NCBI GenBank assembly: GCA_016872675.1
Contig: VGZG01000001.1
Span: 10,770 to 74,769, forward strand
Length of the DNA: 64,000 bases
Direction: 5' to 3'
Source of the DNA: Planctomycetota bacterium
GTDB taxonomy: Bacteria; Planctomycetota; UBA1135; UBA2386
The number at the start of each line of letters is the position of its first letter. The first letter of the stretch is position 1. The notes below the pieces were generated by a model. The model did not search any database. It was not told the DNA's origin and was given only the letters and a program-made list of their open reading frames with translations. A program made the position numbers and the translations under genes. Positions 1 to 37,143 of this stretch are shown in pieces.

Positions 1-815
1 GCGCGCGTGCGCAGCCCGGCGACCCGCAGCACGACGTCGCCGGGCGCGTGTGCCGCGCGGCGGGCCGTCGCCAGCTTGCGGCCGACCATCAGGCCGACCA
101 GCGCTTCGTGGGTGATCGCGTCGCGGCTCAGCTCGCCGCTGTTGCGGCCGTCGCGCAGGCCGACGACGCGGTCGGCGAGTTCCTTCACCTCGCCGAGCCG
201 GTGCGAGATGTAGACCACGCCGACGCCCTGGCCGCGCAGTTCGCGCACGACCGCGTACAGGCGCGCGGTCTCAGCCATGGTCAGGCTCGACGTCGGCTCG
301 TCCATGATCAGCACGCGCGCCTGCGCCCGCAGCGCGCGGGCAATCTCCAGCAGCTGTTTCTGCCCGGGCGCGAGCGCGCTAACCGGCGTGTCGGCGTCGA
401 CCTGCAGGCCGACGCGGTCGAGCCACTTCGCCGCCTGCGCGCGCATCGCGCCCAAGCGCAGAAACGGGCCGCGGCGCAGCTCAGCGCCGAGGAACAGCGC
501 GCCAGCGACGGTCAGGTTGTCGCACAGGCTCAGTTCCTGGTGGATCAATGCGATGCCGGCGCTCAGGGCGTCGGCCGGACCAGCGAGACGGACCGGCGCG
601 CCAGCCAGCAGGATCTGGCCGGCGTGCGGCTGGACGACGCCGGCGAGCGCCTTCATCAGCGTGCTCTTGCCGGCGCCGTTCTCGCCGACCAGCGCCACGA
701 CTTCGCCGGCGCGCACCGTGAAGTCGACCTGCGACAGCGCGCGGACGCCGGGGTAGTCCTTGCAGACGCCGCGGGCCTGCAGCAGCGGCGGAACGGCGGC
801 AGCCCCCGTCGTCAT
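1..815 (-). CDS. Sugar (ribose/xylose-type) ABC transporter ATP-binding protein, N-terminal part only (gene runs off the left edge)
   Basis: My own minus-strand translation from the ATG at 815. It is absent from the ORF track because no stop lies inside the window. Sequence: MTTGAAAVPPLLQARGVCKDYPGVRALSQVDFTVRAGEVVALVGENGAGKSTLMK... Walker A is GENGAGKST and Walker B is RVLIMDEPTSSL. The gene begins 4 nt after the stop of the binding-protein gene. Confidence 0.8.
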   Translation of the reverse strand, partial: MTTGAAAVPPLLQARGVCKDYPGVRALSQVDFTVRAGEVVALVGENGAGKSTLMKALAGVVQPHAGQILLAGAPVRLAGPADALSAGIALIHQELSLCDNLTVAGALFLGAELRRGPFLRLGAMRAQAAKWLDRVGLQVDADTPVSALAPGQKQLLEIARALRAQARVLIMDEPTSSLTMAETARLYAVVRELRGQGVGVVYISHRLGEVKELADRVVGLRDGRNSGELSRDAITHEALVGLMVGRKLATARRAAHAPGDVVLRVAGLRTR

Positions 816-14298: not shown

Positions 14299-15867
14299 TC
14301 AGCGACCGAGGTCGACGAACACGCCGCCGTTCTCCTCGGCCAGCTTCTTGAGGAAGTCCTTGGTGAAGTCGCCGATGGCGATCGTGTGAATCACCATGCG
14401 GAAGGCTTCGTTGTGCTTCCTGACCTCCTTCAGGATCTCGAGCGGCTCGATCAGCTTGCCGACCGACGGCCGACCGTCGCTGAGGAAGTAGACGGTGTCG
14501 AGCGGCGACTTGATGGCGTTCTTGTCGAAGCCAGTGACCACCGGCTTGACCGGCTTGTCCGGGTCGACGCCGAAGGCGTACAGCAACGCCTTGAGGGTGT
14601 TGGTCTTGCCCGCCTCCAGGTTGGCGGCGCCGACCAGCCCCGACATGGCGGTGTTCTGGTCCTCGGTGCCGCCGATCGGCTTCAGCGACTTCACGTGCTG
14701 CTTGGCGGCGTCCCTGTTGACGACGTTCGCCGGCACCAATCGCTTTTTCCACGCGCTGATGTCGGTGGCGAACGACAGGATGTCGAAGTTGGTGTCCGGC
14801 GTCAGCGAGTCGATCGCGCTGAGCAACTCGGCCTGCACGATCGTGAAGCGCCGTCGATCGCGATACCCCTGGAACTTCTCGACCTCGCCGACGAGGTCGT
14901 CCATCGAGCCGGAGACGTCGATGATGAACAGTAGGTTCGTCGACGTCGTCGGAATACTGGCGAACTCCTTGCGCTCCTCCTTCTTGCCATAGAACGCGTC
15001 GGTCTTCTTGCGGCTCTCGGCCTTCTTCGCCAGTTCCTCATCCGTCGGGATACGCCAGCCCTGGATCGTCATCAGCTGGTTCCATTGCTCCTGCCAGCGC
15101 TCAGGATCGACGCCGAAGTCGAAGCCGGTGACCCGGAACAACGCCTCGGCGCACTCGGTGCGCATACGGCCCTCCTTGCGCATCAGGTCGATCAGCGGTT
15201 GCACGGCCTCCTGCGGACGGATCTGCCCGCACGCGGCGACGGCAGCCGCCTGCACCTGCCACTCGGGCGCCGTCAGCAGCGCCGTCGCCGCCTTGCCGTG
15301 CTCGACGCGCTTGAGCGCGCCCACTGCGTCCAGCGCGGCGATCCGCACCTGCGGCTCCTTGTCGGCGAGCAATGCGCCCAGCAACCCCTTGCCGCCGGCA
15401 TCGCCGATGCCGTGCAGCGCCCGTGCGCTCTCGTACTTCAGCACGATCGAAGCCTTCGGATCGAGTCCAACGGCCTCGATCGCCGGCACGGCGTCCTTAA
15501 CCTTGGCGGCGCCCAGCACCTTGACGATCACCGCCTGCTGCTCGGGGTCCTTCGACTTCGGCAAATCGGCGATCCACGTCGCGTAGGTCTTCGGGTCGTT
15601 GTACGTCGCCAGCACTGTCATCGCCGCCTGCTGCACCGCGGCGGCAGGATGCTTGAGCAGCTTGATCAGCTCCTCGGCGGCCGGCGCGCACTCGTTGCCC
15701 TTGAGGTGCGTGAGGATCGCCTCGACCTGCAGCGCCTCGGACTTCTCCTTGCGGAAGAATCGCTGGAACTCCTTCACCGCGTCGAGCTTGGCGGCATCGT
15801 CCTGCGCGCCGAGCGGCGCGACCAACGACAGGGCGACAGAGAGCAACCAGTTGAGGCTTCGACGCAT
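14299..15867 (-). CDS. Secreted HEAT-repeat + von Willebrand factor A (vWA) domain protein
   Basis: Track ORF 14299..15942 trimmed to MRRSLNWLLSVALSLVAPLGAQ (signal peptide). The N-terminal half has HEAT/ARM-like helical repeats (PAAEELIKLLKHP, EPQVRIAALDAVGAL). The C-terminal vWA domain has an intact MIDAS (LLFIIDVSGSM). Confidence 0.8.
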   Translation of the reverse strand: MRRSLNWLLSVALSLVAPLGAQDDAAKLDAVKEFQRFFRKEKSEALQVEAILTHLKGNECAPAAEELIKLLKHPAAAVQQAAMTVLATYNDPKTYATWIADLPKSKDPEQQAVIVKVLGAAKVKDAVPAIEAVGLDPKASIVLKYESARALHGIGDAGGKGLLGALLADKEPQVRIAALDAVGALKRVEHGKAATALLTAPEWQVQAAAVAACGQIRPQEAVQPLIDLMRKEGRMRTECAEALFRVTGFDFGVDPERWQEQWNQLMTIQGWRIPTDEELAKKAESRKKTDAFYGKKEERKEFASIPTTSTNLLFIIDVSGSMDDLVGEVEKFQGYRDRRRFTIVQAELLSAIDSLTPDTNFDILSFATDISAWKKRLVPANVVNRDAAKQHVKSLKPIGGTEDQNTAMSGLVGAANLEAGKTNTLKALLYAFGVDPDKPVKPVVTGFDKNAIKSPLDTVYFLSDGRPSVGKLIEPLEILKEVRKHNEAFRMVIHTIAIGDFTKDFLKKLAEENGGVFVDLGR

Positions 15868-15905
15868 ACGGGGGGTCTCGGCGGGCGATGGACGCGCCGC
15901 GGAGT

Positions 15906-16487
15906 CTATCCGTTCGCCTTCACGCCCGCATGGCGCCACCACGACAGCTTGCTGTCGCGCTCGATCGCGCGGCGGAGCACGTCGACGTCGAGGTCGGCGT
16001 CACGAACTTCCTCAATGGGCACGGCCCCGCCGGCGTGGCGGGGCTTGAGCACGAACGCGAGGTGGTGCTGGTAGGCGACCTCGACGACCCAGTGCAGCCG
16101 GGTCGCGCCCGCCGACAGCAGCAGCGACTTTGCCAGGTTCTCCAGCTGGACCAGCGACTCGGATGACGTCACGCCGAGCTCGACGAACGGCAGTGTGCGC
16201 GCGCCGATGTCGCCGGCGCCGGACGCGCGCACGCAGAGGCCGGGCAGACGCTCGAGCGCGCGGACCAGCGGCCAGACGCCGACGGCGACGCCGCGCTGGC
16301 GCGCCTCGTCGGCGTCGTGCAGCGACTCGACCGCGCGCAGCTCGCCGAAGCGCGCGAAGCACAGTCCGCATTCGTGCACGGGCGCGCCGTCGACGACGCG
16401 CACCTTCATGTCATGGTTGCCGCACTCCGGACAGGTCTGCACGTTGCGGACGATACCGTCAGCGCCCGTCGCAGCCGGCGCAATCAC
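15906..16487 (-). CDS. Hypothetical protein with N-terminal 4-Cys zinc ribbon
   Basis: Track ORF 15906..16562 trimmed to a GTG that overlaps the upstream stop (GTGA at 16484-16487). The ribbon is TCPECGNHDMKVRVVDGAPVHECGLCFARFG. I cannot assign the C-terminal 140 aa to any family. Confidence 0.6.
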   Translation of the reverse strand: MIAPAATGADGIVRNVQTCPECGNHDMKVRVVDGAPVHECGLCFARFGELRAVESLHDADEARQRGVAVGVWPLVRALERLPGLCVRASGAGDIGARTLPFVELGVTSSESLVQLENLAKSLLLSAGATRLHWVVEVAYQHHLAFVLKPRHAGGAVPIEEVRDADLDVDVLRRAIERDSKLSWWRHAGVKANG

Positions 16488-18082
16488 TTGCCGTCGGCCT
16501 TCGGCGACTTTCTCTCGGCCGACTTGGCGCCGACCTCGCGCTCCGCCAGCTTGCGCACCCAATCGTTCTCCTCGGTCGTGGTGCCCAGGCGCACGCCTTC
16601 GCCCTGCGAGCCAGCGACTACCTCGCCCACCACCGAGCGCGGCAGGATCACGCGGTTACTGCGGAACTCGAGCACGACGTGATCGTCGGCGATCTGGCTG
16701 AGGATGCCGCCCACCAGCTTGTTGCTGTTGGTCAGGCGGACGAAGCCGTCGGTCGCCTTCTGCAGCGCCGCGTAGTCGGCCGAGCCGAGGCCGGTCAGGC
16801 GCTTCAGTTCGGCCCTTTCCAGCGTGACCTCGCCCTCCGACGTGCGCAGCGTGACCTGCGCGGCGTCGACCGACTTGACGCTGCCGATGAAGAAGTTGCC
16901 GTTGTGCAGCTGCGCGAAGGCCTTGACGCCCGGGATCACACCGTCGACGACGCGCCGCTCGCCGGCGCTGACATCGGCTTCGCCTAGCATGGTGTCGTCG
17001 CCGACGCGGATCAGCGTGCCGAGCGGCTTGCGCGCGTTGGGCGGCCTCGCGCCAGCGTTGCCGCGAGCGACCGGCCAAGCGACCATGGGCGCCGCCGCGG
17101 ACACGTCCGCGACCGGCGTCGGCTCGGGCTTGGTCGTCGCGCTAGGCGCCGTAGCCAGTGGGACGGGCGTCGCCGGCGCGACCACGGGCTCGTCGACCGC
17201 CGGCGTCGGCTCCGGCGTCGTGGTCGCGACCGTCGCGGGCGACGGCGGCTGTGTCGCCGGCTCGACCGCAACCGGCGCGACCTGCGGCACGACCACGGCG
17301 ACGGCCGCGGGCGGCTGCAGTTCGACCTTGACGTGTGGCCGATCGACCTTTGCGACCGCGATGCGCCGCGTCTTCTGGTCAGGGATGCCAACCCACTGCG
17401 GCCGCAGCGCCGCGACGGCCGCGGCGGCGACGATCGTCAGCGTCGCGGCCGCCGACGCGAGCATGACGCCCCAACGCATGCCCGGCGCGGGATTGGCGAG
17501 AACCGGCGCGATGACGTCGTCCGCCTCGACGGTGGCGATGGGCGCGGCGAAGCCCTCGACCTCGTCGGTCGCAGGTTCGCTCGCGAGTTCCTCCGACTCC
17601 GCCAGTGGCTGGGCCGCTGTGAGGCCCAGGAAGTCATCGGGCGCCAACTCACTGACTTCGACGGCATCGCCCTCGTCGCTCTGCGGCTCGGCCTCGCCGT
17701 TCCACGTCGCGCCTTCATCGAGCGTGAACTCGGCGGGCGCATCGTCGGCGTCGACTGGCGGCGTCAGCGAGGCCGGCGTCGTGCTCGGATCGTCGAGTTC
17801 GAGTTCGTTGCCGTTCCAGCTCGACGGCGCGTCCTCGGCGAATTGCGGCTGGTCGGCGCCAAACGTCACGCTCGGCGCCACCTCGGCGCCGTGGTCAGCG
17901 AACAGCGCTGCCTCGGCGGCTTCGTCCACAAGCGCAGGCGCCGATGCTGCCGGCGCGGCCTCTGGCGGCAGCGCGAACAACTGGTCGAGATCGTCCTGCG
18001 GCACATTGTCCGCCAGACCTTCCACCACGAACACATCGTCGAGGAAGTCAGGATCGTCGTCGTTGCATTGGTCGCCGCCCAT
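16484..18082 (-). CDS. Hypothetical single-pass membrane protein: poly-acidic N-terminus, Pro-rich linker, repeated C-terminal beta-type segments
   Basis: 532-aa ORF with GGAG 5-6 nt upstream of the ATG. Residues 1-200 contain 50 D/E and no K/R (hand count). The TM helix is WGVMLASAAATLTIVAAAAVAAL. A P/A/T/V-rich stretch spans aa 256-335. Two related segments follow (NGNFFIGSVKSVDAAQVTL... / NSNKLVGGILSQIADDHVVL...). Confidence 0.7.
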   Translation of the reverse strand: MGGDQCNDDDPDFLDDVFVVEGLADNVPQDDLDQLFALPPEAAPAASAPALVDEAAEAALFADHGAEVAPSVTFGADQPQFAEDAPSSWNGNELELDDPSTTPASLTPPVDADDAPAEFTLDEGATWNGEAEPQSDEGDAVEVSELAPDDFLGLTAAQPLAESEELASEPATDEVEGFAAPIATVEADDVIAPVLANPAPGMRWGVMLASAAATLTIVAAAAVAALRPQWVGIPDQKTRRIAVAKVDRPHVKVELQPPAAVAVVVPQVAPVAVEPATQPPSPATVATTTPEPTPAVDEPVVAPATPVPLATAPSATTKPEPTPVADVSAAAPMVAWPVARGNAGARPPNARKPLGTLIRVGDDTMLGEADVSAGERRVVDGVIPGVKAFAQLHNGNFFIGSVKSVDAAQVTLRTSEGEVTLERAELKRLTGLGSADYAALQKATDGFVRLTNSNKLVGGILSQIADDHVVLEFRSNRVILPRSVVGEVVAGSQGEGVRLGTTTEENDWVRKLAEREVGAKSAERKSPKADGK

Positions 18083-18288
18083 GGCATCTCCGGTTCCGAT
18101 CGTGGGTTACCGGGATATCGGCAGGACCAACCACCGCCATGAGGTGGACCCGAGCGCTGCCAGCGCCCGCGCGCAACCGCCGATGCCGCCGGCTGCACCG
18201 CCGAAGCCGGCCGCTGGCTCAGAGCGAGAGAAACCAGCGGTCGCTGCGGGCAATCGGAGTGCCCGTAGGGTGACTGCTTCTCCGACTG

Positions 18289-20238
18289 TCAGCCCGACTG
18301 GCTCTCGCGCGCCAGTTCGCGGGCGAGATCGGACGATGGCAGCAGTCGGCGCACGCCGCCGCGCAGCACCGTCAGACCGAGCGCGTCGACATACTCGAGC
18401 AACGGGATCAGGTACTTGCGGCTGGTATCGAGCTTGTCGCGCAGGGCCGGGATGTCGAGGACCTCGGCGTGGGCGAGGCAGTTGTCGCGGATCGCGCGCA
18501 GCACAATGCGCACGACCGACGCCCCGTAGAAGTGGTCGCCGACCTTGTCGATGCGGCCTTCGTCCTGCGCGCGATCGAGCAGCGACAGCAGCGCGTCGCC
18601 CTGCATGCCCACCACCGATTCGAGCTCGGCGAGTTCCGGCGGCCGGAAGCCCCGCAGCTCGCACTCGCCGACCAACTTGTCGAAACGCTGTTGCTGCGGC
18701 GATGGCAACGGCCGCAGCCGGTCGACGAACAGCGCCTGCCCCTGCCGCCCCATGCGCACCCGGCCTTGCGCCTGCAACCGATCGAACACGCAGTCGACGA
18801 GCGGCTGCGGCAACGTCTTGGTCGTGCGGATCGCCGCGCGCTTGACCGACGCCGCCTCGGCGCGCTTCTGCAGCATCTTGTCGACCGACTGCAGCAACTC
18901 CTGCTCGCCGGCGATGACGTGCTCGCCGAGGAAGGCGCGCATCGCCCGCTCGTGCAGCGCCACTACCGGCATGGCGCGCAGCAGCGCGACCGCCTGCTCA
19001 TCGGCGAGTCCGAGCGCGCGCGAGATCTCGTCGACCGGCAGGCCGTCCGGCCCGGCCTGCCGCAGTTCGTGCTCGACGCGCGCCTCGGGTCGGTCGCCGG
19101 CGACCAGGATGCCGACCAGTTCCTCGCCGAGGTCCTTGCGACGGTAGCGGCCGGACCTGGACAGGCGGATCACCTTGCCGCCGCCGATCGTCGCGGCCGG
19201 GTTCTGCAGGCGCAGCAGGAAGCGATCGCCGGCGGCGCAGCAGACGTCCTCGTCGAGTTCGACGCGCGCAACGACCGAATCGCCGGGTCCGGCGTCGTCG
19301 CGGTCGAGCAGCAGCAATTGGCCGCGAACCTCAACGGTGCCGACATGGAAGCGGATCGGCGCTCGGTGGCTCAGGCGCGGCGAACGCCTGGTCAGCGTCA
19401 GATCGACGTCGACGGCGTCGCCGGCGGCGAACGCGCCGGGAGCGCACGCCACCATGCCGCGATGCACGCCGGACTCCTTGGCTTCGGGCACCGACAGCGC
19501 CGTGCTGTGGCCGGCGACCGCCTCGTCGACCTTGCCGCCGTAGGCGTGGATGCCGCGCACCTTGAGGCGCTCGCCGATTGGCAGGACCTCGATCTCGGCG
19601 CCCGGCTGGATCGCGCCGGCGATCGGGATGCCGGTGACGACCGTGCCGATGCCCGCCAGCGAGAACACGCGCTGGATCGGCATGCGGAACGGTCCCTGGC
19701 TCGTCCTCGGCGGCACCGCCAGCGCGAGAGCCTCGAGCCTCTGCTTGAGCTCGGGGATGCCTTCGCCAGTGAGCGAACTGACGCGCACGACCTCGGCATC
19801 GGCGAGCGGCGTGCCGCGCACGAGCTTGCGCGCCTCCTCCGCCGCCATGTCGGCCAGCGCCTTGTCCACCATGTCGACCTTGGTCAGCACGATCAGGCCG
19901 CCGCGAACCTGCAAAAGGTCGAGGATGTCGACGTGTTCGATCGTCTGCGGCATGACGCCGTCGTCGGCGGCGACAACGAGCATGGCGAGGTCGAGGCCAG
20001 TGCAGCCGGCGACCATGTTGCGCACGAAGCGCTCGTGGCCGGGGACGTCGACGAGGCCGAGCCAGCGGCCGTCGGCCAGCCGCATGCGGGCGAAGCCGAG
20101 GTCGATCGTCAACCCGCGCTCCTTCTCCTCCTTGAGGCGGTCCGGATCGATGCCGGTCAACGCCTTCACCAAGCTGCTCTTGCCGTGGTCGATATGGCCG
20201 GCGGTGCCGACGACGATCGGGTGGATGGATCGCGCCAT
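18289..20238 (-). CDS. selB: Selenocysteine-specific translation elongation factor SelB
   Basis: Track ORF 18289..21396 trimmed to [50 protein letters not shown], the SelB-type N-terminus. G3 is DVPGHERF and G4 is LTKVD. The protein is 649 aa with a long C-terminal winged-helix-like extension. Confidence 0.9.
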
Positions 20239-22058: not shown

Positions 22059-23498
22059 TCACGCCTTCTCCAGACGCGCGCCCTGCGGCGTGTCGACGAT
22101 CTTCCAACCGGCGGCGGCAACGCGCTGGCGGATGGCGTCGGCGGTTGCCCAGTCCTTGGCCTTCTTCGCGGCGTCGCGCTGCGGCAGCAGCGCCACCAAT
22201 TCGGCGGGCGCGTCGGCGCCAGCGTCGGCCTTCGGTTCGGGGCCAAAGCACCCGAGCACGTCTTCGAAGCGCACGAACGCCGCCAGCGCCGCCGCCGCGC
22301 CAGCCGCGGTCGGTTGCGCCTTGTTGGCGACGCCGACGAAATCGAACACCGCCGCCAACGCTTCGCTGACGTTGAGGTCGTCGGCCATCGCCGCAGCGAA
22401 CGCCGCCTGCGCCGTCGCCGTCGCGGTTGCGAGGTCGGCGGCGCCCGCCGGCTCGGCGCCGTCACGGACGCGCGCCAGCCGCTGCCGGCACTGCTGCACG
22501 CGACCGATCGCCGCGCGCGCCTCGTCGAGACCCTTGAGCGTGAAGTTGAGCGACTGCCGGTACTGCACGCGGATCAGCGCGTAGCGCAATTCGAGCCCGG
22601 AGTAGCCCTTCTTCAGCACGTCCTCGACGGTGAAGAAGTTGCCCAGACTCTTGCTCATCTTGGTGCCGTCGACGAGCAGGTGCCGCGCGTGCATCCACAG
22701 GCCGACGAATGGCTCGCCGGTGTGCGCTTCGGTCTGCGCGATCTCGCACTCATGGTGCGGGAACATGTTGTCCTCACCGCCGGTGTGGATGTCGATCTGC
22801 GGGCCGAGGTAGTGCATCGACATCGCCGAGCACTCGATGTGCCAGCCGGGGAAGCCGCGCGCGCCGTCGCGGAACGGCGCGTCCCACTGCATCTGGTGCT
22901 TATGGTCGACCTTCCACAGCGCGAAGTCGCGCGGATCCTTCTTCTCGTCGTTCACGGCGACGCGCGCGCCGGCCTCGAGCTCGTCGAGCACTTTGCCCGA
23001 AAGCTTGCCGTAGCCGGGGAAGCGCGCCACTTCGAAGTAGACGTTGCCGTTGCGCTGGTAGGCGACGCCCTTGTGCAGCAGGTCGTCGATGATCGCCCCC
23101 ATCTGGGCGATGAACTCGGTCGCGCGCGGCATGTGGTGCGGCAGGCGCACGAACAGCTTGCGCTGGCAGTCGTGGAACTCGTCCTCGTAGCGCTTGGCGA
23201 TGTCCCATGCGGTGACGCCGGCCTTGCGCGCCGCGACTTCCATCTTGTCCTCGCCGCCCTCGATGTCGTCGAGCGTGAGGTGACCGACGTCGGTGATGTT
23301 CATCACCTGCGTCACCGTGAAACCCTGGTCCTCGAGGAAGCGCCGCAGCACGTCGGCGAACAGGAAGCTGCGGAAGTTGCCGATGTGTGGCGAGCTGTAG
23401 ACCGTCGGCCCGCAGTGGTACATCGTCACGCGGCCGGGCACGCGCGGCCGGAAGTCAACGAGGCTCTTGCTGAGCGAGTTGTGGAAGCGGATCGGCAT
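22059..23498 (-). CDS. cysS: Cysteine--tRNA ligase
   Basis: Track ORF trimmed to [10 protein letters not shown]. The class I motifs are HIGN (HIGH-type) and KMSKS, plus GWHIECSAM. The protein is 479 aa. Confidence 0.93.
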
Positions 23499-23578
23499 GC
23501 GGCGAAGCCGTAGCGTCGCAGAGCGGCAGCGACGGCGCAACGCCGCAGCGGCGCGGGCTGCGCGGGTTCAACGGCCCG

Positions 23579-24226: not shown

Positions 24227-24393
24227 GCCGCCCGACCAGCGCCGCTGACGCCGTGCGTCCGATGGCATCGCGCCGTCCGCAGTGACCGACAGCCGAACCA
24301 CCCAGGGCGACGAGAATGCGACAGGTCCGCGGGCCGGCGGCGCGCCCGCCGCGCCATCGCACGCATATCCTGCTGGCTCGTCACCGTACCCGC

Positions 24394-27300
24394 ATGCTCC
24401 CATTGCTCGCCGTGTCGACGGTCATCGCCGTCGCGTTCACTCCGCCTGCCGACCAGGAACAGACGCCTCCGACTCCAACGACCACATCGGCAGCGGAACC
24501 GCCGACGCGAGCCGCCGCGGCGACGGCGGCCCAGGAACCTGCGGTTCCATCGACCAGCCCGTTCTCCGAGCAACTGGTCGCCAACCTCGCGTGGCGCCAC
24601 CTCGGCCCCGCCAATCCGATGGGCCGGATGACCGACATCGCCGTGCACCCGGCGCGGCAGAGCACATGGTTCGTCGGCACCGCTGGCGGCGGCCTGTGGA
24701 AGACCGACAACGCCGGCACGACGTGGTCATGCGTCAGCGCGCGCCTTGGCTCAGTGTCGATTGGCGACGTCGCCATCGCGCCGAGCAATCCCGACATCGT
24801 GTGGATCGGCGCCGGCGAAGAGAACGCGCGCAATTCGGTGCAATGGGGCGACGGCGTCTACAAGTCGACCGACGGCGGCGCGTCGTGGACGCACATGGGG
24901 CTGCGCGAGACGTTCCAGATCGGCCACGTCGAGATCCACCCGACCAATCCCGACGTCGTCTACGTCGCCGCGCTCGGCCGGCTCTGGGGCGACAACGCCG
25001 AACGCGGCGTCTACCGCACGAAGGACGGCGGCGCGTCGTGGGAGCGCGTGCTGCACCTCGACGAACGCACCGGCTGCATCGACGTGCGCCTGCACCCGAC
25101 CGATCCGACGACCGTGTTCGCATGCCTGTACGAACGCAAACGCGACGGCTTCGACGGCAACGACCCGAGCGTGCGCTTCGGCAAGAAGAACGGCCTCTAC
25201 AAGAGCGTCGACGGCGGCGACAACTGGCGGCAGCTGACCAACGGCTTGCCGACCAACCTCTGGGGCCGCAGCGGCATCGATCTGCTCGCGTCGCGCCCGG
25301 ACACGATGTTTGCGATCGTCGAGTCCGAGCGCAGCGGCTGGGCCAAGGGCGACCGCAAGGACCTGCTGCCCGGCGAGGGCCAATCCGCGCGCGGCGGCAA
25401 CCGCGGCGGCGAAGCGCGCGCGGCCGGCTCCGATGGCGGCTTACTGCCGCCCAACCCCGCGCTCCAGCAGCAGGAAGAAGGCGAGCAACCGCGCAACGAG
25501 GCCCCCGCCGGCGAGCGGTCGGCCGCGCCGCAAGGCCAGAACCCGGCGGCGGGCGGCCGCGTGCGCCGCGGCGCCGAACTCGGCGTCGGCAGCGACGGCG
25601 GCGACGGCACGGCCGACGCGCCCGGCGCGATCCTGCGCGCGATCACCGACGGCGGCCCGGCGGCGCAAGCCGGCCTGCTCATCGGCGACCGCGTGACCAA
25701 GGTCGGCGACGAAGCGGTGAAGACGTTCGCCGACCTCGCCGAGATCGTGCGCGACGCGACGCCCGGCGCGAAGGCGACGCTGACGTTCGTACGCGACACC
25801 GAGACGAAGACCGCCGAGGTGACCTGGGGCCAGCGCCAGCCAGGCGCCTTCCAGCAGATCGCCGGTCGGCCCAGCGGCCCGTACAGCGGCCGGCTGTTCG
25901 GCCAGGACGCCAACAAACAGAAGGAACAGGGCGAACTTGGCTTCGAGTGCGGCGGCGTCTACCGCAGCGATGACCGCGGCGAGAACTGGCGGCGCGTCAA
26001 CAGCCTGACCGAGCGGCCGTTCTACTACTCGGTGATCCGCGTCGATCCGCGCTCGGACCAGAACGTCTACTGCGTCGGCACGACGCTGTGGGGCACGCGC
26101 GACGGCGGCGAGAAGTTCGCGGCGATCAACCAGGGCATCCACGTCGACTTCCACGGCATTTGGGTCGACCCCGACGACTCCGACCACCTTGTCGCGATCT
26201 GCGACGGCGGCGTCAACGAGACCTTCGACCGTGGCGCCAGCTGGCAGGTGCACCGCGGCTTCAGCGCCGCGCAGTACTACGACGCCGTCGCCGACAACAG
26301 CGTGCCGTACAACGTGATCGGCGGCCTGCAGGACAACGGCACATGGGTGGTGCCCTCGCGCACGCGCTTCCGCGACGGCGTCGGAACAACCGACTGCTTC
26401 ACCATCTACGGCGGCGACGGCTTCGGCGCGCAGACCGACCCGGCCGAGCCGTGGATCGCCTACGCCACCAGCCAGAACGGCGCGCTCGGCGTCGTCGACC
26501 TGCGCAGCGGCGCGCAGACACGCATCAGCCGCGAGCGGCTGGCCGACGGCCAGACCGCTCGCTTCAACTGGGACGCGCCGTTCACGCTGTCGCCGCACAA
26601 CCGGCTGACCCTCTACCACGCTGGCAACTTCGTCTGGCGCGGCGAACGCCACGCCCACCTCGACAACCGCGCGACGCGGCCGGGCCAGGGCCCCGTGCGC
26701 GCTGACGGCCTGCGCATGCGCAAGGTCTCGCCAGCGCTAGGCCGCACGCCGGAGGGCACGGCGGTGGCGCTGGCCGAGAGTCCGCGCGTGCAGGGCCTGC
26801 TGTACGTCGGCACCGACGACGGCGCGCTGTGGCGCACCGACGACGGCGGCGCCAACTGGCAGCGGCTCGAGCAGAACCTGCCGCTGCCGGGGCCGCGCTA
26901 CGTCAGCGACCTCGTGCCATCGTTCTTCGCCGACGACCGCGTCTACCTGACCGTCGACGGCCACCGCTCGGACGACTTCGCCACCTACGTGTTCGTGTCA
27001 AACGACCGCGGCGCTTCGTGGCGCGACCTCGGCATTGAGTTGCCGTCGCGCGAGCCGTGCTACGCGGTCATGGAAGATCCGCGCAACGAGGACCTGCTCT
27101 ACCTCGGCACCGAGTACGGCGCGTACGCGTCGTTCGACCGCGGCGAGCGCTGGTTCCCGCTCGGCGCCGAGCTGCCGACGGTCGCGGTGCGCGACCTGTT
27201 CGTGCAGGACCGCGACAGCGACCTGATCGCGGCGACACACGGCCGCGGCGTCTTCACGCTCGACGTCGAGGCGCTGCGCCAGGTCACCCGCGCCGTCGCG

Positions 27301-27693
27301 CGCAAGCCCGCCCACCTGTTCGCCATTGAGCCGGCGATCCTGTGGCGCATGCAGTCGCGCGGCTGGCAGGGCCAGAAGAACTGGCACGCCAAGAACCCGC
27401 CGTACGGCGCGACCTTCCACGTCTGGCTGGCCGAGGCGCCGAAGGACAAGCCCGTGCTGACCGTGCACGACGTCACCGGCGCCGAGATCGCGCGCGTCGA
27501 GGGCAAAGCCGAGGCCGGTCTGCAGGCGATCCAATGGGACGCCCGCGTCGGTCGCAACCAGCTGGCGACACCGGGAACGTATGCGGTGCGCTGGCAGGGC
27601 ATGAAGGACGTCGACGCCCGCGCCTTCCAGCTGCTGCCCGATCCCGCCACCACCGCCGTCGACGGCGCCGAAGCCGCGAGCGCGAAGGAGTGA
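24394..27693 (+). CDS. Sortilin/VPS10-like BNR (Asp-box) beta-propeller protein with inserted low-complexity + PDZ module
   Basis: Track ORF 24316..27693 trimmed to MLPLLAVSTVIAVAF. It has at least 10 Asp-box motifs (KSTDGGASW, RTKDGGASW, KSVDGGDNW, RSDDRGENW, RTDDGGANW, VSNDRGASW...). The PDZ-like insert is ELGVGS...GPAAQAGLLIGDRVTKVGDEAV...ATLTFVRD (about nt 25564-25830). The C-terminal domain is Ig/FlgD-like. Confidence 0.85.
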   Translation: MLPLLAVSTVIAVAFTPPADQEQTPPTPTTTSAAEPPTRAAAATAAQEPAVPSTSPFSEQLVANLAWRHLGPANPMGRMTDIAVHPARQSTWFVGTAGGGLWKTDNAGTTWSCVSARLGSVSIGDVAIAPSNPDIVWIGAGEENARNSVQWGDGVYKSTDGGASWTHMGLRETFQIGHVEIHPTNPDVVYVAALGRLWGDNAERGVYRTKDGGASWERVLHLDERTGCIDVRLHPTDPTTVFACLYERKRDGFDGNDPSVRFGKKNGLYKSVDGGDNWRQLTNGLPTNLWGRSGIDLLASRPDTMFAIVESERSGWAKGDRKDLLPGEGQSARGGNRGGEARAAGSDGGLLPPNPALQQQEEGEQPRNEAPAGERSAAPQGQNPAAGGRVRRGAELGVGSDGGDGTADAPGAILRAITDGGPAAQAGLLIGDRVTKVGDEAVKTFADLAEIVRDATPGAKATLTFVRDTETKTAEVTWGQRQPGAFQQIAGRPSGPYSGRLFGQDANKQKEQGELGFECGGVYRSDDRGENWRRVNSLTERPFYYSVIRVDPRSDQNVYCVGTTLWGTRDGGEKFAAINQGIHVDFHGIWVDPDDSDHLVAICDGGVNETFDRGASWQVHRGFSAAQYYDAVADNSVPYNVIGGLQDNGTWVVPSRTRFRDGVGTTDCFTIYGGDGFGAQTDPAEPWIAYATSQNGALGVVDLRSGAQTRISRERLADGQTARFNWDAPFTLSPHNRLTLYHAGNFVWRGERHAHLDNRATRPGQGPVRADGLRMRKVSPALGRTPEGTAVALAESPRVQGLLYVGTDDGALWRTDDGGANWQRLEQNLPLPGPRYVSDLVPSFFADDRVYLTVDGHRSDDFATYVFVSNDRGASWRDLGIELPSREPCYAVMEDPRNEDLLYLGTEYGAYASFDRGERWFPLGAELPTVAVRDLFVQDRDSDLIAATHGRGVFTLDVEALRQVTRAVARKPAHLFAIEPAILWRMQSRGWQGQKNWHAKNPPYGATFHVWLAEAPKDKPVLTVHDVTGAEIARVEGKAEAGLQAIQWDARVGRNQLATPGTYAVRWQGMKDVDARAFQLLPDPATTAVDGAEAASAKE

Positions 27694-27697
27694 TGCC

Positions 27698-30514
27698 ATG
27701 AACCTCGCCATGACGATCCGCCTCGCGGGCCTGCTGCCCCTCCTCGCCGCCGCCGTCGCGGCGCAAGCCACCGATCAGGAACACGCCCGCACCAATGTCT
27801 TCGCGCAGATGAAGTGGCGCGAACTCGGCCCGGTGATGAGCGGCGGCCGCATCGTCGACATCGCCGTGCACCCAACGAAGCCGCAGGTGTTCTGGCTGGC
27901 CGCCGGCAGCGGCGGCCTGTGGAAGACCGAGAACGGCGGCCTGCGCTTCACGCCGCAGTTCCAGGACGCCTATACGACGTCGATCGGCGACGTAGCCGTG
28001 GCGCCGAGCAACGGCGACGTGCTGTACGTCGGCACGGGCGAAGGCAACAACCAGCGCAGCTCGTACTGGGGCAACGGCGTGCACAAGTCGACCGACGGCG
28101 GCAAAACCTGGCGCCACGTCGGCCTCGACGGCGCCGACCACATCGGCCGCGTCGTCGTGCATCCGGCCAACGCCGACGTCTGCTACGTCGCCGCGCTCGG
28201 CGCGCTGTACACGACAAACGACCAGCGCGGTCTCTACAAGACCACCGACGGCGGCGCCACGTGGTCGCGCATCCACCACCTCGGCCCGGACGTCGGCTGC
28301 GTCGACGTCGCGCTCGATCCGACCAACCCTGATGTCGTCTACGCCGCCAGCTACGAACGCCGCCGCCGCGCCTGGAACTTCACCGAGGGCGGCCAGGGCT
28401 CGCGGTTGTGGAAGTCGACCGACGCCGGCGCGACCTGGAACCGACTCAACAAGGGCCTGCCCGAAGGCGTGCTCGGCCGCATCGGTCTCGACCTCGCCGC
28501 CGACGGCAAGACGCTGTACGCGACGATCGAGAACTGCAACCCGCGGGCCGACAAGGCCGCGGCCGAGCCCGAGAAGCCGACCGAGACGGAGTCGTCCGAG
28601 CCCGACAGTGAACTGCTCGCCGATGGCGTCGCGTTCGCCGAGCACGAGCGCAAGGTCGCGCAGGCACAGGACCCGGTTCGCCGCAGCCGCCGCAGCACGA
28701 TCGGCGGCGAGGTCTACCGCAGCGACGATGGCGGCGCGTCATGGCGCAAGACGCACGGCGACGACGTCAGCGTCGGCGGCGACCCCGGCTACTACTACGG
28801 CCAGGTGCGCGTCGATCCGACCGACAAGGAGACGGTCTACGTGCTGTCGGTGCCGGTGTACCGTTCGAGCGACGGCGGCAAGTCCTGGACGCCGGGCCGC
28901 GGCCGCGGCGGCGCCGCGTTCCACGGCAACTTGCATGTCGACCACCACGCGCTGTGGATCGACCCGAAGGACGGCAAGCACGCGCTGCTCGGCAACGACG
29001 GCGGCGTCGCCGTCACCTGGGACGGCGGCGCTTCGTGGGACCACCTGACGCACCTGCCGATCACGCAGTACTACGCGATCGCCGCCGACGACCGGCCGGT
29101 CTACCGCGTCTACGGCGGCCTGCAGGACAACGGCTCGTGGGGCTTCCCCATCCTCGGTCCGACCGGCGCCGGCCTGCGCGCGACCGACGCCTTCCGCATC
29201 GACGGCGGCGACGGCTTCTACGTCTGCGTCGATCCCAGCGATCCTGACGTTGTCTACAGCGAGTCGCAGTTCGGCGGCATGAGCCGGCAGGACCTGCGCA
29301 CCGGCGCGCGCAAGAGCATCAAGCCGACGGCGCAGAAGGGCGAGCAGCCGCTGCGTTTCAACTGGCAGACGCCACTGCTGCTATCGCCGCACGCGCCGCA
29401 CACGGTCTACACCGGCAGCCAGTTCGTCCACCGCTCGCGTGATCGTGGCGACAGTTGGCGCACGATCAGTCCGGACCTGACGACCAACGACCCAGACAAG
29501 AAGAAGGGCAACGTCCCACATTGCACGATCACGACGCTCGCCGAGTCGCCGCGCCAGGACGGCTGGCTCATGGTCGGCACTGACGACGGGCGCATATGGA
29601 GCACGAAGGACGGCGGCGGCCGCTGGACCGAGCTCACTGACCGCTTCCCGGCGGCGGTGAAAGGCCTGTGGGTCTCGCGCGTCGAAGCGTCGCCGCACGC
29701 CGACGGCACGGCGTTCGTGTCGTTCACCGGCTACCGCGAGGACGTGCGCGCTCCGTTCGTGTTCCGGACCGACGACGCCGGCGAGACCTGGACGGCGATC
29801 GCCAACGACCTGCCGCAGGAGCCGGTCAACGTCGTGCGCCAGCACCCGCGCAACCGTGCCGTGCTGCTGGTCGGCACCGAGATGGGCGTGTACGCGTCGC
29901 TCGACGACGGCGCCCACTGGCACCCGCTCGGCAGTGGTCTGCCGCGCACGGCCGTGCACGACCTCGTCGTGCAGCCGCGCCACGGCCACGTTCTGGTCGG
30001 CACCCATGGCCGCGGCGTCTTCGCGCTCGACGCCAAGGCGCTCGACGAGCTGACGGTGGAGAAGACGACCGCTGCCTTCACAGCGCTGCCGCCTAGCGAC
30101 GGCGCGCTGCTGCGCCGCGGCTTCAGCGAGGGCAACACGGGCGCCCGCGGTTGGTCGACGCCGAACCCGTTCGTGACGCCGACCTTCCGCTACGTGCTCG
30201 GCCAAGACGGCGGCGCCAAGGTGACGATCGAGGTGCTCGACGCTGCCGGCGCGGTGGTCTGGCGCAAGGACGGCCCGACTGCCGCCGGCTACCACGAGAT
30301 CGCCTGGGCCACGGAGCGCAACCAGGCCTTCGGCTTCGGCGGGCGCGGTGGCGGCAACGGTGGGCCGCGTTCCGGTCAGTTCGCGGTGCGCATCAGCCGC
30401 GGCGACCAGAGCCGCACGCAGGCGTTCACCGTGCACGACCGCCGCGGCCCAGGCAGCGGGCCTGACGTTCGCGGCGACGAAGGCGACGAGGGTGAGTTGG
30501 GCGACGATCGATAG
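27698..30514 (+). CDS. Sortilin/VPS10-like BNR (Asp-box) beta-propeller protein (paralog, no PDZ)
   Basis: 938-aa ORF with AAGGAG 7 nt upstream, inside the end of the previous gene. The signal peptide is MNLAMTIRLAGLLPLLAAAVAAQA. Its Asp-boxes (KSTDGGKTW, KTTDGGATW, KSTDAGATW, RSDDGGASW, RSSDGGKSW, STKDGGGRW, RTDDAGETW) are collinear with the upstream paralog. Confidence 0.88.
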   Translation: MNLAMTIRLAGLLPLLAAAVAAQATDQEHARTNVFAQMKWRELGPVMSGGRIVDIAVHPTKPQVFWLAAGSGGLWKTENGGLRFTPQFQDAYTTSIGDVAVAPSNGDVLYVGTGEGNNQRSSYWGNGVHKSTDGGKTWRHVGLDGADHIGRVVVHPANADVCYVAALGALYTTNDQRGLYKTTDGGATWSRIHHLGPDVGCVDVALDPTNPDVVYAASYERRRRAWNFTEGGQGSRLWKSTDAGATWNRLNKGLPEGVLGRIGLDLAADGKTLYATIENCNPRADKAAAEPEKPTETESSEPDSELLADGVAFAEHERKVAQAQDPVRRSRRSTIGGEVYRSDDGGASWRKTHGDDVSVGGDPGYYYGQVRVDPTDKETVYVLSVPVYRSSDGGKSWTPGRGRGGAAFHGNLHVDHHALWIDPKDGKHALLGNDGGVAVTWDGGASWDHLTHLPITQYYAIAADDRPVYRVYGGLQDNGSWGFPILGPTGAGLRATDAFRIDGGDGFYVCVDPSDPDVVYSESQFGGMSRQDLRTGARKSIKPTAQKGEQPLRFNWQTPLLLSPHAPHTVYTGSQFVHRSRDRGDSWRTISPDLTTNDPDKKKGNVPHCTITTLAESPRQDGWLMVGTDDGRIWSTKDGGGRWTELTDRFPAAVKGLWVSRVEASPHADGTAFVSFTGYREDVRAPFVFRTDDAGETWTAIANDLPQEPVNVVRQHPRNRAVLLVGTEMGVYASLDDGAHWHPLGSGLPRTAVHDLVVQPRHGHVLVGTHGRGVFALDAKALDELTVEKTTAAFTALPPSDGALLRRGFSEGNTGARGWSTPNPFVTPTFRYVLGQDGGAKVTIEVLDAAGAVVWRKDGPTAAGYHEIAWATERNQAFGFGGRGGGNGGPRSGQFAVRISRGDQSRTQAFTVHDRRGPGSGPDVRGDEGDEGELGDDR

Positions 30515-33034: not shown

Positions 33035-34795
33035 CTACTGCCAGAGCGCGCGCAGTTCGCGGCTCTGGCGGGTCGACAGTTCGAACGCGACGGCGGCGCG
33101 CTCGCCCGACTGCACGGTCAATGGCCGGTCGGCGGCGTCCTCGAACACGCGCAGCGCGCCGAGTTCGTCGCCGTTGACGCGCAACAAACGGAGAGTCCAG
33201 TCGGGCGCATCGAAGCGCGCGCCGCGGGCGTCGACGGCCTTGGCGGCAACAAGGTCGCGCAACTCGTCCTGCGCGAACTCGCCAACCTCGGGCCGCGCGC
33301 CGTCGGCGCCGACCAAGCGCCAGCGACCGTCCTCGATCCGGAAACTGCGAGCGCGACCGTCCCTGTGCGCGAGATCGAGGCGTTCGAGGGTCGCGGACTG
33401 CGTGAACACGCGCTTGCTGACGTAGTCGAGCCAAGGCCGGCGCAGCACGGTGACCGAGCCGACCGGCACCAGCGCGATGGTGTCCGGCTCGTCGACGCGA
33501 CAGGCGTGCACGACCGCTTCCTCGCCGTGGCGAGCGTCGGCCCCGAACCACAATGTCGTCGCCTTGGTCTCACGGGCGGTGCGCGTCGAAAGCGCCGTAC
33601 GACCCGCCTGCAGGCCGTAGCGGGGATCCTCGACGCGCGGCCGCGGACCGTCCTTGTCGTCGCAGAACTCCACCGCCGTCAACAGCTGGATCGCCTCGAT
33701 CAACTCATTGCACGGCGTCGGCGCCGCCGCCCACTGCACCGGCTCAACCAGCCGCCAGTCGCCGCTCGCTGATTCGCGCACGATGCGAAGCCGGTCGTTG
33801 TCCCGACCCTGGCCCGGATCGACAACGATGTCGACCAACTCGGCGAAGGCGGTTTGGTCGAACGGCAGCAGGATGCGGGCGCGCAAGTTCTCGGCGGCGT
33901 TGTCGAAGATCTGCGCGTACTGCAGGCTGCTGCTGGTGAACGCGAGCTGGCGGCCGGGCAGCGAGCCGAAGAGCTCGCGGCGCTCGTCCCACAGCGACAG
34001 TCGCTCCTCGCCGAACGCGCCAACGACGGTCACGCGCACGCGCGGCTCGCGGTCCGGAAAGCGCACGACGCCCGGCAGGAAGTCGTCAACGCGCAATGAC
34101 AGAACGGCTGTCACGAAGCGCTGCGTGGCATTCGGATCGGCGCGCCCATCGAGCGGCGCCAGCAGCCGCCAGCCGGTCGCCGCCAGCTTCAGGTGCAGGG
34201 TCTCCTTATTGCCTGAGTCGAGCAGGTGCTCGACGCGCACTTCGCTCGCCTGGGCGAAGGCGTTGCGGAACACCGCCTTCTCGCGCAGGTCATCGGGGTT
34301 GGCGCGCATGCTCTCGAGCAGCGCCTGACCGCCTTCCCAGATGGCGCCATGGCTGCGCAGGAAGCGCGTCGTGCCGAGCGGGCCCTCGGCGCCGACCTCG
34401 ACGCGGATCTCGTGGCCATCAGCGAAGCGCGCCAGGAATTCCAGCTGCGGTTCGACGAGGCCCGCCTTCTGCCGACCGTCGGCGTCGTCGGCGAGCGGCG
34501 CCTTGCGCATCTGGGCGCTGTCCCACGCGTCGCAGATCTGCTTCATGTGCGCCGCTGAGGCCAGGTCGACAAGGGGCTCGCGCATTTGGAAGCGACCATC
34601 GGGGCCGCGGCCCAGCTCGATCGGCGGCCGCTCGCGGAACTGCCAGCGGATCATCGCGGCGTCGGCGAGCGAGCGGCCCTCGAGCACCGCCGTTTCGGCC
34701 TGCTTCTTCACCTCGACGGTCTGGTCAGTAAGCAGCAGCAGGGCGCCGAGACTGGCGCACAACAGGAGCAGAACGACGATGCCGCGCGTGCCCAT
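33035..34795 (-). CDS. DUF4340 domain protein (4th gene of the ABC-2/GldG-type operon)
   Basis: 586-aa ORF with the N-terminal anchor MGTRGIVVLLLLCASLGALLLL. Its ATG abuts the TAG of the GldG-like gene (34796-34798). The family call rests on the canonical gene order and repeated beta-rich segments. Confidence 0.7.
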   Translation of the reverse strand: MGTRGIVVLLLLCASLGALLLLTDQTVEVKKQAETAVLEGRSLADAAMIRWQFRERPPIELGRGPDGRFQMREPLVDLASAAHMKQICDAWDSAQMRKAPLADDADGRQKAGLVEPQLEFLARFADGHEIRVEVGAEGPLGTTRFLRSHGAIWEGGQALLESMRANPDDLREKAVFRNAFAQASEVRVEHLLDSGNKETLHLKLAATGWRLLAPLDGRADPNATQRFVTAVLSLRVDDFLPGVVRFPDREPRVRVTVVGAFGEERLSLWDERRELFGSLPGRQLAFTSSSLQYAQIFDNAAENLRARILLPFDQTAFAELVDIVVDPGQGRDNDRLRIVRESASGDWRLVEPVQWAAAPTPCNELIEAIQLLTAVEFCDDKDGPRPRVEDPRYGLQAGRTALSTRTARETKATTLWFGADARHGEEAVVHACRVDEPDTIALVPVGSVTVLRRPWLDYVSKRVFTQSATLERLDLAHRDGRARSFRIEDGRWRLVGADGARPEVGEFAQDELRDLVAAKAVDARGARFDAPDWTLRLLRVNGDELGALRVFEDAADRPLTVQSGERAAVAFELSTRQSRELRALWQ

Positions 34796-36379: not shown

Positions 36380-37143
36380 CCGATCCTCCGCGCCGCGAGA
36401 CTGATGCCACATAGGCAGAGAAAGAACGCGATGCCGCCGACGTAGAACGCGACCTGGCTAGTGTCGATCAACCCGCGCGCGAACCACTCGCTGAAGTTCC
36501 GCATCACGTCGAACTTGTCGAGCAGCTCGCGCACGCGCCAGTCCTGCGCCGCCTCGCCGAGCAGGCCGGCGATCTGCCGGGGCAGCGTCAGCAGACCGTA
36601 GTCGAACATGATCGTCAGCAGCGCGGCCAACAGCACGTTGTCGGTCAAGCTGCTAGCGAAGCAGCCAAACGCGAGCAGCATGCCAGCAAGCAGGAACATG
36701 CCGAGGTAGGCGGCGAACACCGGGCCGAACGCGAGGTCAGCAGCGAGGAACGGGCCGTACTCGAGGACGTGCAGCACGAGCACGCTAGGCAGCCACAGCA
36801 GCGAGTAGAACGCCGTCGCCGCCGCCCACTTGCCGAGGATCACTTCGCCGTCGCGCACCGGCGCGGTCAACAGCGTCTCCAGCGAGCCGGTGCGCCGCTC
36901 CTCGGCGAAGCTGCGCATCGTCAGCAGGCCGGGCACCAGCACGACCATCAGGAAGGTGCTGCCGAGCGAGTAGGTCTGCGGCGGCAGCAATTCCTGGTCG
37001 ACGCGGTAGCGCGCGAAGTAGTCGACCAAGGCGCGCAGCTCGAGGCCGCGCCACCAGTAGAACAGCACGCCGACGATCCAGCTGACCGGGCTGACGCAGT
37101 ACGACAGCAGTTCCTTGCGGAAGGTCACCAGCGCCCCGTTCAT
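36376..37143 (-). CDS. ABC-2 type transporter permease
   Basis: Track ORF trimmed to MNGALVTFRKELLSYCVSP, whose ATG overlaps the ATPase stop (ATGA). It has 6 hydrophobic segments and the ABC-2 motif FAEERRTGSLETLLTAP. Confidence 0.85.
   Translation of the reverse strand: MNGALVTFRKELLSYCVSPVSWIVGVLFYWWRGLELRALVDYFARYRVDQELLPPQTYSLGSTFLMVVLVPGLLTMRSFAEERRTGSLETLLTAPVRDGEVILGKWAAATAFYSLLWLPSVLVLHVLEYGPFLAADLAFGPVFAAYLGMFLLAGMLLAFGCFASSLTDNVLLAALLTIMFDYGLLTLPRQIAGLLGEAAQDWRVRELLDKFDVMRNFSEWFARGLIDTSQVAFYVGGIAFFLCLCGISLAARRIG

Follow-up and report, generated by a model that had tools for sequence, protein, structure and literature searches.

Immediately downstream of selB in a Planctomycetota bacterium (GenBank assembly GCA_016872675.1) lie three neighbouring genes, here called A, B and C, and the question that this locus raises is whether they belong together and, if so, what they might do. 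We analysed them in a window of 64,000 nucleotides (nt), which covers positions 10,770 to 74,769 of the forward strand of contig VGZG01000001.1 and whose own numbering is used throughout. The reading that we favour, at a rough probability of 0.35, is that the membrane protein A and the exported protein C together form a scaffold or sensor across the membrane, to which B is a cytoplasmic accessory that can be dispensed with. Domain types that are familiar singly are combined here in a new way, and homologues of A, B and C come from uncultured Planctomycetota only. The most tangible new finding is that B likely has a TYW3-like ancestry.

Gene C encodes a predicted exported HEAT-vWA protein

The product of C starts with a Sec-type signal peptide and continues with HEAT repeats and a von Willebrand factor type A (vWA) domain (Table 1). 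Pfam HEAT_2 was matched over three stretches (E-value 1.6e-17, 64 bits, cut-off 27.7), VWA_3 and VWA scored 31.6 bits (cut-off 27) and 28.2 bits (cut-off 23.8), respectively, and in a PDB sequence search the repeats resembled alphaRep designs (E 1.5e-18) and the vWA domain that of ITIH4. The metal-ion-dependent adhesion site (MIDAS), to which the DVSGS motif belongs, is invariant in 38 homologues at D317, S319, S321, T422 (GKTNT) and D464 (LSDG), and with Pfam scores above the cut-offs this bears out the description of C as HEAT repeats plus a vWA domain with an intact MIDAS, given in a first-pass annotation made from the sequence alone. C60, C239 and the extreme C-terminus ...DLGR are likewise invariant in these homologues. 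That annotation also took C to be secreted, which agrees with a signal-peptide-like N-terminus ending in ...(A/P)xA↓Q in 31 of the 38, as judged by a home-made check of hydrophobicity and charge. C evolves the slowest of the trio, with 57–60% identity where B and the C-terminal region of A have 40–45%, and by these sequence criteria is a strongly constrained, exported protein.

In vWA and integrin I-domains the MIDAS binds a ligand carboxylate. C is like HEAT_2 proteins of the PBS-lyase/alphaRep type and like ITIH/VWA_3-type vWA domains in its Pfam scores and its complete MIDAS, but unlike ITIH/VWA_3-type systems its vWA domain has an extra conserved insert (PIGG.E.Q ... GKTNT) and no VIT domain, and unlike known vWA systems it has no MoxR/AAA+ partner gene nearby. 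No characterised representative of the combination of signal peptide, HEAT repeats and vWA domain was found.

Gene A encodes a membrane protein with an acidic tail and two small barrels

The A family numbers 125 homologues, every one from uncultured Planctomycetota, and A has no match in Pfam, NCBIfam or PDB sequence searches. Its members follow a common plan of an acidic N-terminus, one hydrophobic helix, a Pro-rich spacer and a very conserved C-terminal region of ~190 residues, and the ATG start of A in the window is supported by the conserved family N-terminus M..D..DFLDDDF. Composition and hydrophobicity bear out the poly-acidic N-terminus and single transmembrane helix that had been described: before the helix, window A contains 24% D/E and 0% K/R, and across the family this region is 115–477 aa long with a median net charge of −66. 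It carries the motifs M..D..DFLDDDF.IED, DL..LF..P, S.WDG..LDLD, GPFVLDDG, EPGWEPLP and GHDIYAE. The best-conserved residues of A sit C-terminal to the helix; among them are NGN.FIG and ADDH.VLEFR.NR, together with an E and a W of the C-terminal helix that never vary.

Averaged over 120 A homologues, the sequence before the helix holds 3.2 K/R and 0.35 D/E and that after it 2.0 K/R and 2.15 D/E. This positive-inside bias favours an N-in, C-out orientation, as does the fact that export of a 200–470-aa N-terminal tail without a signal peptide would, to our knowledge, be unprecedented, and we infer that the barrels described below and the acidic C-terminal helix are periplasmic.

AlphaFold2 (AF2) gave a confident five-stranded small barrel for A residues ~379–444, with a predicted local distance difference test (pLDDT) score of 90–95, and Foldseek aligned this barrel 1 with Sm/Hfq-like barrels over 49 aa at a root-mean-square deviation of 1.1–1.8 Å (~1.2 Å) and an E-value of ~2e-3. 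With Sm and Hfq the barrel shares the fold only, as there is no Pfam or PDB sequence match and it is predicted to be periplasmic, whereas Sm and Hfq are defined by Sm1/Sm2 motifs and form cytoplasmic RNA-binding rings. We read it as a generic SH3/Sm-like small barrel and not as a relative of Hfq. The second module, RLTNNNRLVGGILS.IADDH.VLEFRSNRV.LP, is conserved above the level of barrel 1 and is modelled by AF2 with low confidence. BLASTP between the two halves of the C-terminus found no repeat and is evidently blind to it, since profile–profile comparison with hhalign links both modules (probability 77%, E 2e-5, 44 columns), so the repeated C-terminal region that had been noticed in A is real. 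The Pro-rich spacer varies in length among homologues, and in the window contains a 54-nt direct repeat (76% identical; 17088–17141 and 17175–17228) encoding ...PEPTP(A/V).D... units.

Gene B encodes a Zn-ribbon joined to a probable TYW3/Taw3-like domain

B had been described as an N-terminal Zn-ribbon followed by a domain of 140 aa that could not be assigned. The Zn-ribbon is borne out across 47 family members, none of which lacks C22, C40 or C43 and at least 90% of which also have C19; AF2 strands at residues 27–32, 35–40 and 46–48 give the two CxxC knuckles of a Zn-ribbon, and there is a sub-threshold Pfam match to Zn_ribbon_TFIIB. The domain that follows is not beyond assignment, and points remotely to a TYW3/Taw3-like fold through Foldseek, sub-threshold Pfam matches and a single informative alignment set out below. 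The family as a whole yielded 99 matches in a word-indexed search and 103 cluster representatives in a profile search of 1.84 billion proteins. Conservation outside the Cys residues is highest at W133, which is invariant, and at P100, D167 and a C-terminal L.WW, which are nearly so.

The AF2 model of B (pLDDT 92) consists of the Zn-ribbon, two helices and then a β-β-α-β-β-α arrangement, and the best three Foldseek matches in the PDB were all PH1069, with E-values of 9e-4 to 4e-3 and TM-scores of only 0.31–0.35. PH1069 is a homologue of Taw3/TYW3, a fold with a two-helix N-terminal extension, a RAGNYA (β-β-α)x2 core and an SHS2 insert, whose family binds tRNA (PMC5311493, PMC2034487). The signature of TYW3 is (S/T)xSSCxGR together with two further invariant residues, an Asp of the N-terminal extension and a His (PMC5311493). 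In B the order of secondary structure, two helices and then (β-β-α)x2, agrees with that of the N-terminal extension and RAGNYA core of TYW3/Taw3 (PF02676; PDB 2IT2/2DRV, PH1069; SsTaw3).

Independent matches came from sequence. Four of the 47 family members, all divergent, matched Pfam TYW3 at E ≤ 1, in each case on profile positions ~3–52. The best of these, P0387, reached 26.0 bits (cut-off 27) over positions 3–52 of 211 with an E-value of 6.9e-6, or ~3e-4 when corrected for 47 queries, and its sole notable PDB match was again PH1069, across the SSCxG(R/H) motif (nIDlEIwPLvkiINrl.ni.TfSSCgGHI against eVDeDIiPLlkkINsieNyfTtSSCsGRI). Distant B members align with TYW3/Taw3 over D..I.PL...IN....T.SSC.G, and the B-family profile matched 2DRV at the same place with an E-value of 0.34. 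Because the Foldseek matches to PH1069 and these sequence matches agree, we regard the B domain as a probable remote and shortened relative of TYW3/Taw3. It is unlike TYW3/Taw3 in having an N-terminal Zn-ribbon, no SHS2 insert and no signature, and TYW3/Taw3 is a class-IX S-adenosylmethionine-dependent tRNA-wybutosine methyltransferase of archaea and eukaryotes, whereas the B family is bacterial. The family would then be a bacterial, Zn-ribbon-fused offshoot of TYW3/Taw3, and offers a modest yet tangible clue to how that fold evolved.

The copies that stand with A and C have moved further from the enzyme. Window B gave no match at all to Pfam TYW3 (gathering score 27 bits), and PDB sequence and profile searches with B returned nothing significant apart from Zn-ribbon noise. 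It reads VAVGVWPLV...VRASGAGD, with the signature Asp, Cys and Arg all replaced, and has no conserved His. As cassette B lacks the signature residues, it is therefore not a TYW3 enzyme, and with the Pfam gathering score not reached we rejected its identification as a TYW3 methyltransferase; its sequence suggests that it is most likely a non-catalytic binding module.

A distant subset of the family, by comparison, partly keeps the TYW3 signature as D...SSC(E/G)GH. P0387, P0391, P0370, P0396, P0401 and P0402 (loci L033–L035) are stand-alone bacterial Zn-ribbon proteins of ~170–190 aa, and proteins of the P0387 type, which carry D..I.PLV..(I/L)N....(F/Y)SSC(E/G)GH, come from lower-GC organisms and unrelated gene contexts. 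Judged by this motif, the stand-alone proteins may be an undescribed bacterial branch of the TYW3/Taw3 class. P0427 and P0412 were considered as fusions of B and rejected as frameshifted translations.

Gene order is conserved around a proposed A–C core

Seeded with B, we found 27 GTDB species representatives and three metagenome or metagenome-assembled genome (MAG) contigs that share the CT398-like gene, selB, A, B, C and a convergent major facilitator superfamily (MFS) gene, as far as each contig extends, and in all but one of the B-seeded loci with long enough flanks (27 GTDB species loci and four other contigs) A, B and C are adjacent. Seeding metagenome searches with the C-terminus of A added about 18 further A-B-C loci, including the divergent lineages L069, L066 and low-GC marine contigs, and the order selB-A-B-C is found in about 45 loci. 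It is kept even in L069, where identity is 62% for RpoD, 41% for SelB, 35% for A, 31% for B and 47% for C.

The exceptions are informative about the parts. In L048, L053/L062 and L060, and probably in L070, C comes directly after A and B has left no trace. As the A–C adjacency survives the loss of B in L048, L053/L062 and L060, we treat A and C as the core pair: A–C is the most persistent pairing, and the locus can do without B. Homologues of B with less than about 37% identity (L032–L035 and one JGI contig) stand alone in five different contexts, and the B family pre-dates the cassette. The evidence does not support an obligatory three-part cassette. Co-conservation of the trio, on which the first-pass annotation had staked its proposal of a single cassette, mostly held, over about 45 loci and in deep lineages, but not where B is lost, A is detached or B stands alone.

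In the clade the trio lies in a collinear block of rpoD/cysS, CT398-like, selB, A, B, C, MFS, threonine aldolase and PMM genes. The edges of this block rearrange: in the window, L005 and L007 cysS stands upstream in place of rpoD/dnaG, insertions occur beyond the MFS gene, and L026, L048 and L053 have no MFS gene. Against this background the constant interior speaks to some extent for selection to keep the genes linked, short of proof.

Two matters of labelling concern these loci. In L025 (JBERSB010000651.1) a Planctomycetota A-B-C-MFS block has been assigned to a MAG that bears the name Luminiphilus sp. (Gammaproteobacteria), probably through contamination of the bin, and several other loci stand under the inconsistent NCBI names Brocadiaceae, Singulisphaera and Phycisphaerales.

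A proposed function and the observations that weigh against it

In the mechanism that we propose, A and C, as the core pair, would share the periplasm, where C would dock through its MIDAS or its HEAT solenoid on the conserved barrels and acidic C-terminal helix of A. The polyacidic, motif-rich cytoplasmic tail of A would provide a docking or sequestering platform for cytoplasmic partners, and B would descend from an RNA-modifying enzyme and serve in the cytoplasm as an accessory binding module. As a whole the cluster would be a scaffold or sensor that spans the membrane. The first-pass annotation had proposed a trans-envelope scaffold or signalling complex, which our results support only in part. 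A complex of A and C, whether or not B takes part in it, would connect an adhesion domain that is periplasmic and metal-dependent with the cytoplasm in a new way, and would do so in uncultured members of a phylum in which little is understood of the envelope. Apart from this prospect and the ancestry of B, the trio is a typical conserved-hypothetical cluster.

A number of observations weigh against this reading. The block from the CT398-like gene to the MFS gene is collinear in the clade, which makes adjacency alone weak evidence. In MAG GCA_016794485.1 A is detached from B-C on separate contigs, one (L038) carrying rpoD, the CT398-like gene, selB, A and then an unrelated gene, and the other (L017) ClpS, a gene for 171 aa, B, C and MFS, and the genes that come after A in L058 are one for a metallopeptidase and deoC. 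Rate covariation, assessed in mirror-tree style in 19 genomes from distance residuals regressed on SelB, was 0.46–0.53 among A, B and C but 0.35–0.68 between the trio and the CT398-like and MFS genes, and thus gives no signal specific to A-B-C. The topology of A is also less secure in single proteins than in the family: the helix flanks of window A are ambiguous (1 K/R before, 3 after), and in the A of L069 (5312–7528) the charge bias is reversed. As neither copy shows the family bias, the topology stays a prediction, and the cytoplasmic N-terminus proposed in the first-pass annotation is supported by the family average but not by these two proteins. Finally, cassette B proteins are near neutral, with a median isoelectric point of 6.9, and show no evident electrostatic fit to the acidic tail. 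A basic B that binds the acidic tail of A was accordingly dropped as a candidate.

Much of this would also be expected if the three were unrelated, lineage-specific genes with no common function, adjacent only because the clade is fairly shallow and this region is collinear in it. The flanking genes are no less constant than A, B and C, the trio itself does break (between A and B in L017/L038, after A in L058, and where B is deleted), remote homologues of B are found singly in five unrelated contexts, and no rate covariation is specific to A, B and C. However, selB-A-B-C persists in L069 at a divergence of SelB and RpoD at which order is usually scrambled, rearrangements and insertions that occur at the block edges are rare within the trio, and the short gaps and shared strand fit an operon. 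We hold such mere neighbourhood to be only slightly less likely than the scaffold or sensor that we favour.

A more ambitious version of a joint function would be a novel trans-envelope module, in which C would report a periplasmic or metal-dependent state to A, and the tail of A would be a nucleic-acid-mimicking hub that holds or releases B, a Zn-ribbon pseudo-enzyme of TYW3-like descent. This seems improbable to us; if true, signalling would follow a logic that is new, and TYW3-like proteins of bacteria would for the first time have a functional context.

Comparison with known envelope systems

The first-pass annotation could not match the trio to a described system, and Pfam, NCBIfam, PADLOC and PDB searches likewise led us to none. 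NCBIfam had no match at the level of a whole system, and literature searches found no description of this cluster. Among PADLOC models A and B had no match and C had only a generic HEAT-ARM repeat match; with no PADLOC system-level match, a known anti-phage defence system was rejected.

Bat (Bacteroides aerotolerance) operons contain vWA membrane proteins, helical-repeat proteins and an SH3-domain protein. The trio is loosely like them in pairing a vWA domain, α-solenoid repeats and a small β-barrel at the envelope, and there is a weak NCBIfam match to BatB (E 0.084). However, the locus has no MoxR ATPase or DUF58 gene, its repeats are HEAT and not TPR, its vWA protein is predicted to be soluble and exported where those of Bat are membrane-anchored, and there is no significant sequence relationship. 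A is like HubP/FimV in its single transmembrane helix and long acidic disordered cytoplasmic region, but with the orientation reversed, and like TonB/FtsN/RodZ in its Pro-rich periplasmic spacer that ends in a small globular domain.

This last likeness raises the possibility that A is an envelope-spanning tether or force transducer in the style of TonB, TolA, FtsN or RodZ, which anchors C or the cell wall and serves envelope structure or cell division in place of signalling. Its layout of transmembrane helix, Pro-rich spacer of ~150 aa and C-terminal globular module would suit such a part, small SH3/Sm-like barrels are common periplasmic binding modules, and one A homologue is named 'TonB' by JGI. 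Yet in Pfam, NCBIfam and PDB searches A has no TonB_C, SPOR, LysM or other known wall- or receptor-binding domain, no motor genes of the ExbBD/TolQR type occur in the conserved neighbourhood, and a tether leaves the long, conserved, motif-bearing acidic cytoplasmic region unexplained. We consider this role unlikely, and rejected a TonB/TolA force transducer in particular, TolA_III also being absent by Pfam and NCBIfam. A has no HTH domain either, and homology to HubP/FimV or TonB/FtsN/RodZ was not detected. The resemblances to Bat, TonB/FtsN/RodZ and HubP/FimV are of layout only, the defining features being absent in each case.

Start codon of B and transcription of the trio

The GTGA in which the stop codon of A overlaps a GTG of B (16487–16484) had been taken as a start/stop overlap. 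The sequence is real, and a start overlapping the stop of A is possible in only 8 of 31 loci, whereas all 31 have a start codon exactly three codons ahead of the first Cys of B (M/V-x-x-C), which in the window is GTG 16442. Given this difference in conservation, the overlap is probably not the functional start of B, and GTG 16442 probably is, rather than GTG 16487. From GTG 16442 the A–B gap is 41 nt. Gaps are short at every locus, at 32–122 nt from the stop of A to the first Cys of B and mostly 28–60 nt between B and C.

Alignment of 15 selB-A spacers showed that they are unalignable save for three invariant or nearly invariant blocks, CGATA, GGAA and CGGAG, just before the ATG of A. Since these fit a pattern of a −10-like element and a Shine-Dalgarno sequence, they support the earlier suggestion that the trio is its own transcription unit, and we conclude that it probably has its own promoter and is transcribed separately from selB. 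Scans of the coding strand for consensus sigma-70 promoters and intrinsic terminators found none, and two terminator-like sites lie on the opposite strand only.

These elements also bear on a possible link to selenium, through the decoding of selenocysteine or the handling of selenium, in which B would retain binding of tRNA or other RNA, and A and C would act at the envelope with the convergent MFS transporter. Wherever the flank is long enough selB lies immediately upstream of A, as it does in the MAG with the detached A, and the fold family of B binds tRNA (PMC2034487, PMC5311493). Against this, the promoter-like element lies between selB and A, distant B homologues are not near selB, B has no TYW3 catalytic residues, and Pfam and NCBIfam show no selenium-related domain in A, B or C. 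Furthermore, Rfam and tRNA scans of the trio region and the whole window found no RNA element, and the whole window contains no tRNA-Sec, selA or selD. A selenium function for the trio is thus very unlikely.

Layout of the locus and neighbouring genes

The three genes are co-directional minus-strand neighbours, and a check of their open reading frames (ORFs) and spacings agreed exactly with the first description, including a gap of 38 nt between the stop of B and the ATG of C and the spacer of 206 nt between selB and A (Table 1). G+C content is ~70% across the window and long spurious ORFs overlap A, B and C in number, but as each of the three has a large homologue family they are genuine genes.

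Table 1. Positions of the trio, its predicted features and its upstream neighbours in the window.
Feature	Residues	Window position	Strand	Remarks
Gene A	532 aa	16484–18082	−	ATG start; bitopic membrane protein
A polyacidic disordered N-terminal region	1–~200	18082–17483	−
A transmembrane helix	~203–225	17476–17408	−	One strong hydrophobic helix
A Pro/Ala/Thr/Val spacer	~226–378		−
A small β-barrel 1	380–431	16945–16790	−	AF2 and Foldseek
A small β-barrel 2	444–490	16753–16613	−	Predicted by repeat homology to barrel 1
A conserved acidic C-terminal helix (TTEENDW...)	After barrel 2		−
Gene B	193 or 178 aa	15906–16487	−	193 aa if read from GTG 16487; 178 aa from the more probable start, GTG 16442
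B CxxC...CxxC Zn-ribbon	19–43	16433–16359	−	Conserved Cys, AF2 strands
B TYW3/Taw3-like α/β domain (probable)	~50–185	16340–15933	−	No catalytic motif; Foldseek, profile matches
Gene C	522 aa	14299–15867	−	ATG at 15867
C Sec-type signal peptide (predicted)	1–21	15867–15805	−
C alphaRep/PBS-lyase-type HEAT repeats	~45–250	15735–15118	−	Pfam, PDB
C vWA domain	~310–522	14940–14302	−	Complete MIDAS; Pfam, PDB
CGATA		18120–18116	−	Candidate −10-like element upstream of A
GGAA		18097–18094	−	Conserved block upstream of A
CGGAG		18092–18088	−	Shine-Dalgarno-like, candidate ribosome-binding site of A
selB-A spacer		18083–18288	−	206 nt; carries the conserved elements near A
selB		18289–20238	−	Adjoins A upstream; SelB-specific winged-helix domain in homologues
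CT398/HP0958-like coiled-coil Zn-ribbon gene		20280–~20966	−	Upstream of selB, always paired with selB

The gene upstream of the CT398-like gene is cysS in the window (22059–23540, minus strand), as it is in L005 and L007, which are closest to it. In most members of the clade dnaG-rpoD holds this place, and the difference marks a breakpoint at which the margin of the conserved block was rearranged. Beyond cysS, on the plus strand, lie two adjoining and very large genes for Sortilin/Vps10-BNR repeat proteins (24316–27693 and 27698–30514), the first of which additionally encodes a PDZ domain and a FlgD-Ig-like domain. A Sortilin/BNR gene related to this pair adjoins the detached A of L038. Paired DUF4340 and ABC_transp_aux (GldG-like) genes are a typical accessory module of ABC exporters, and one such pair, unrelated to the trio, is found at 33035–36412 on the minus strand.

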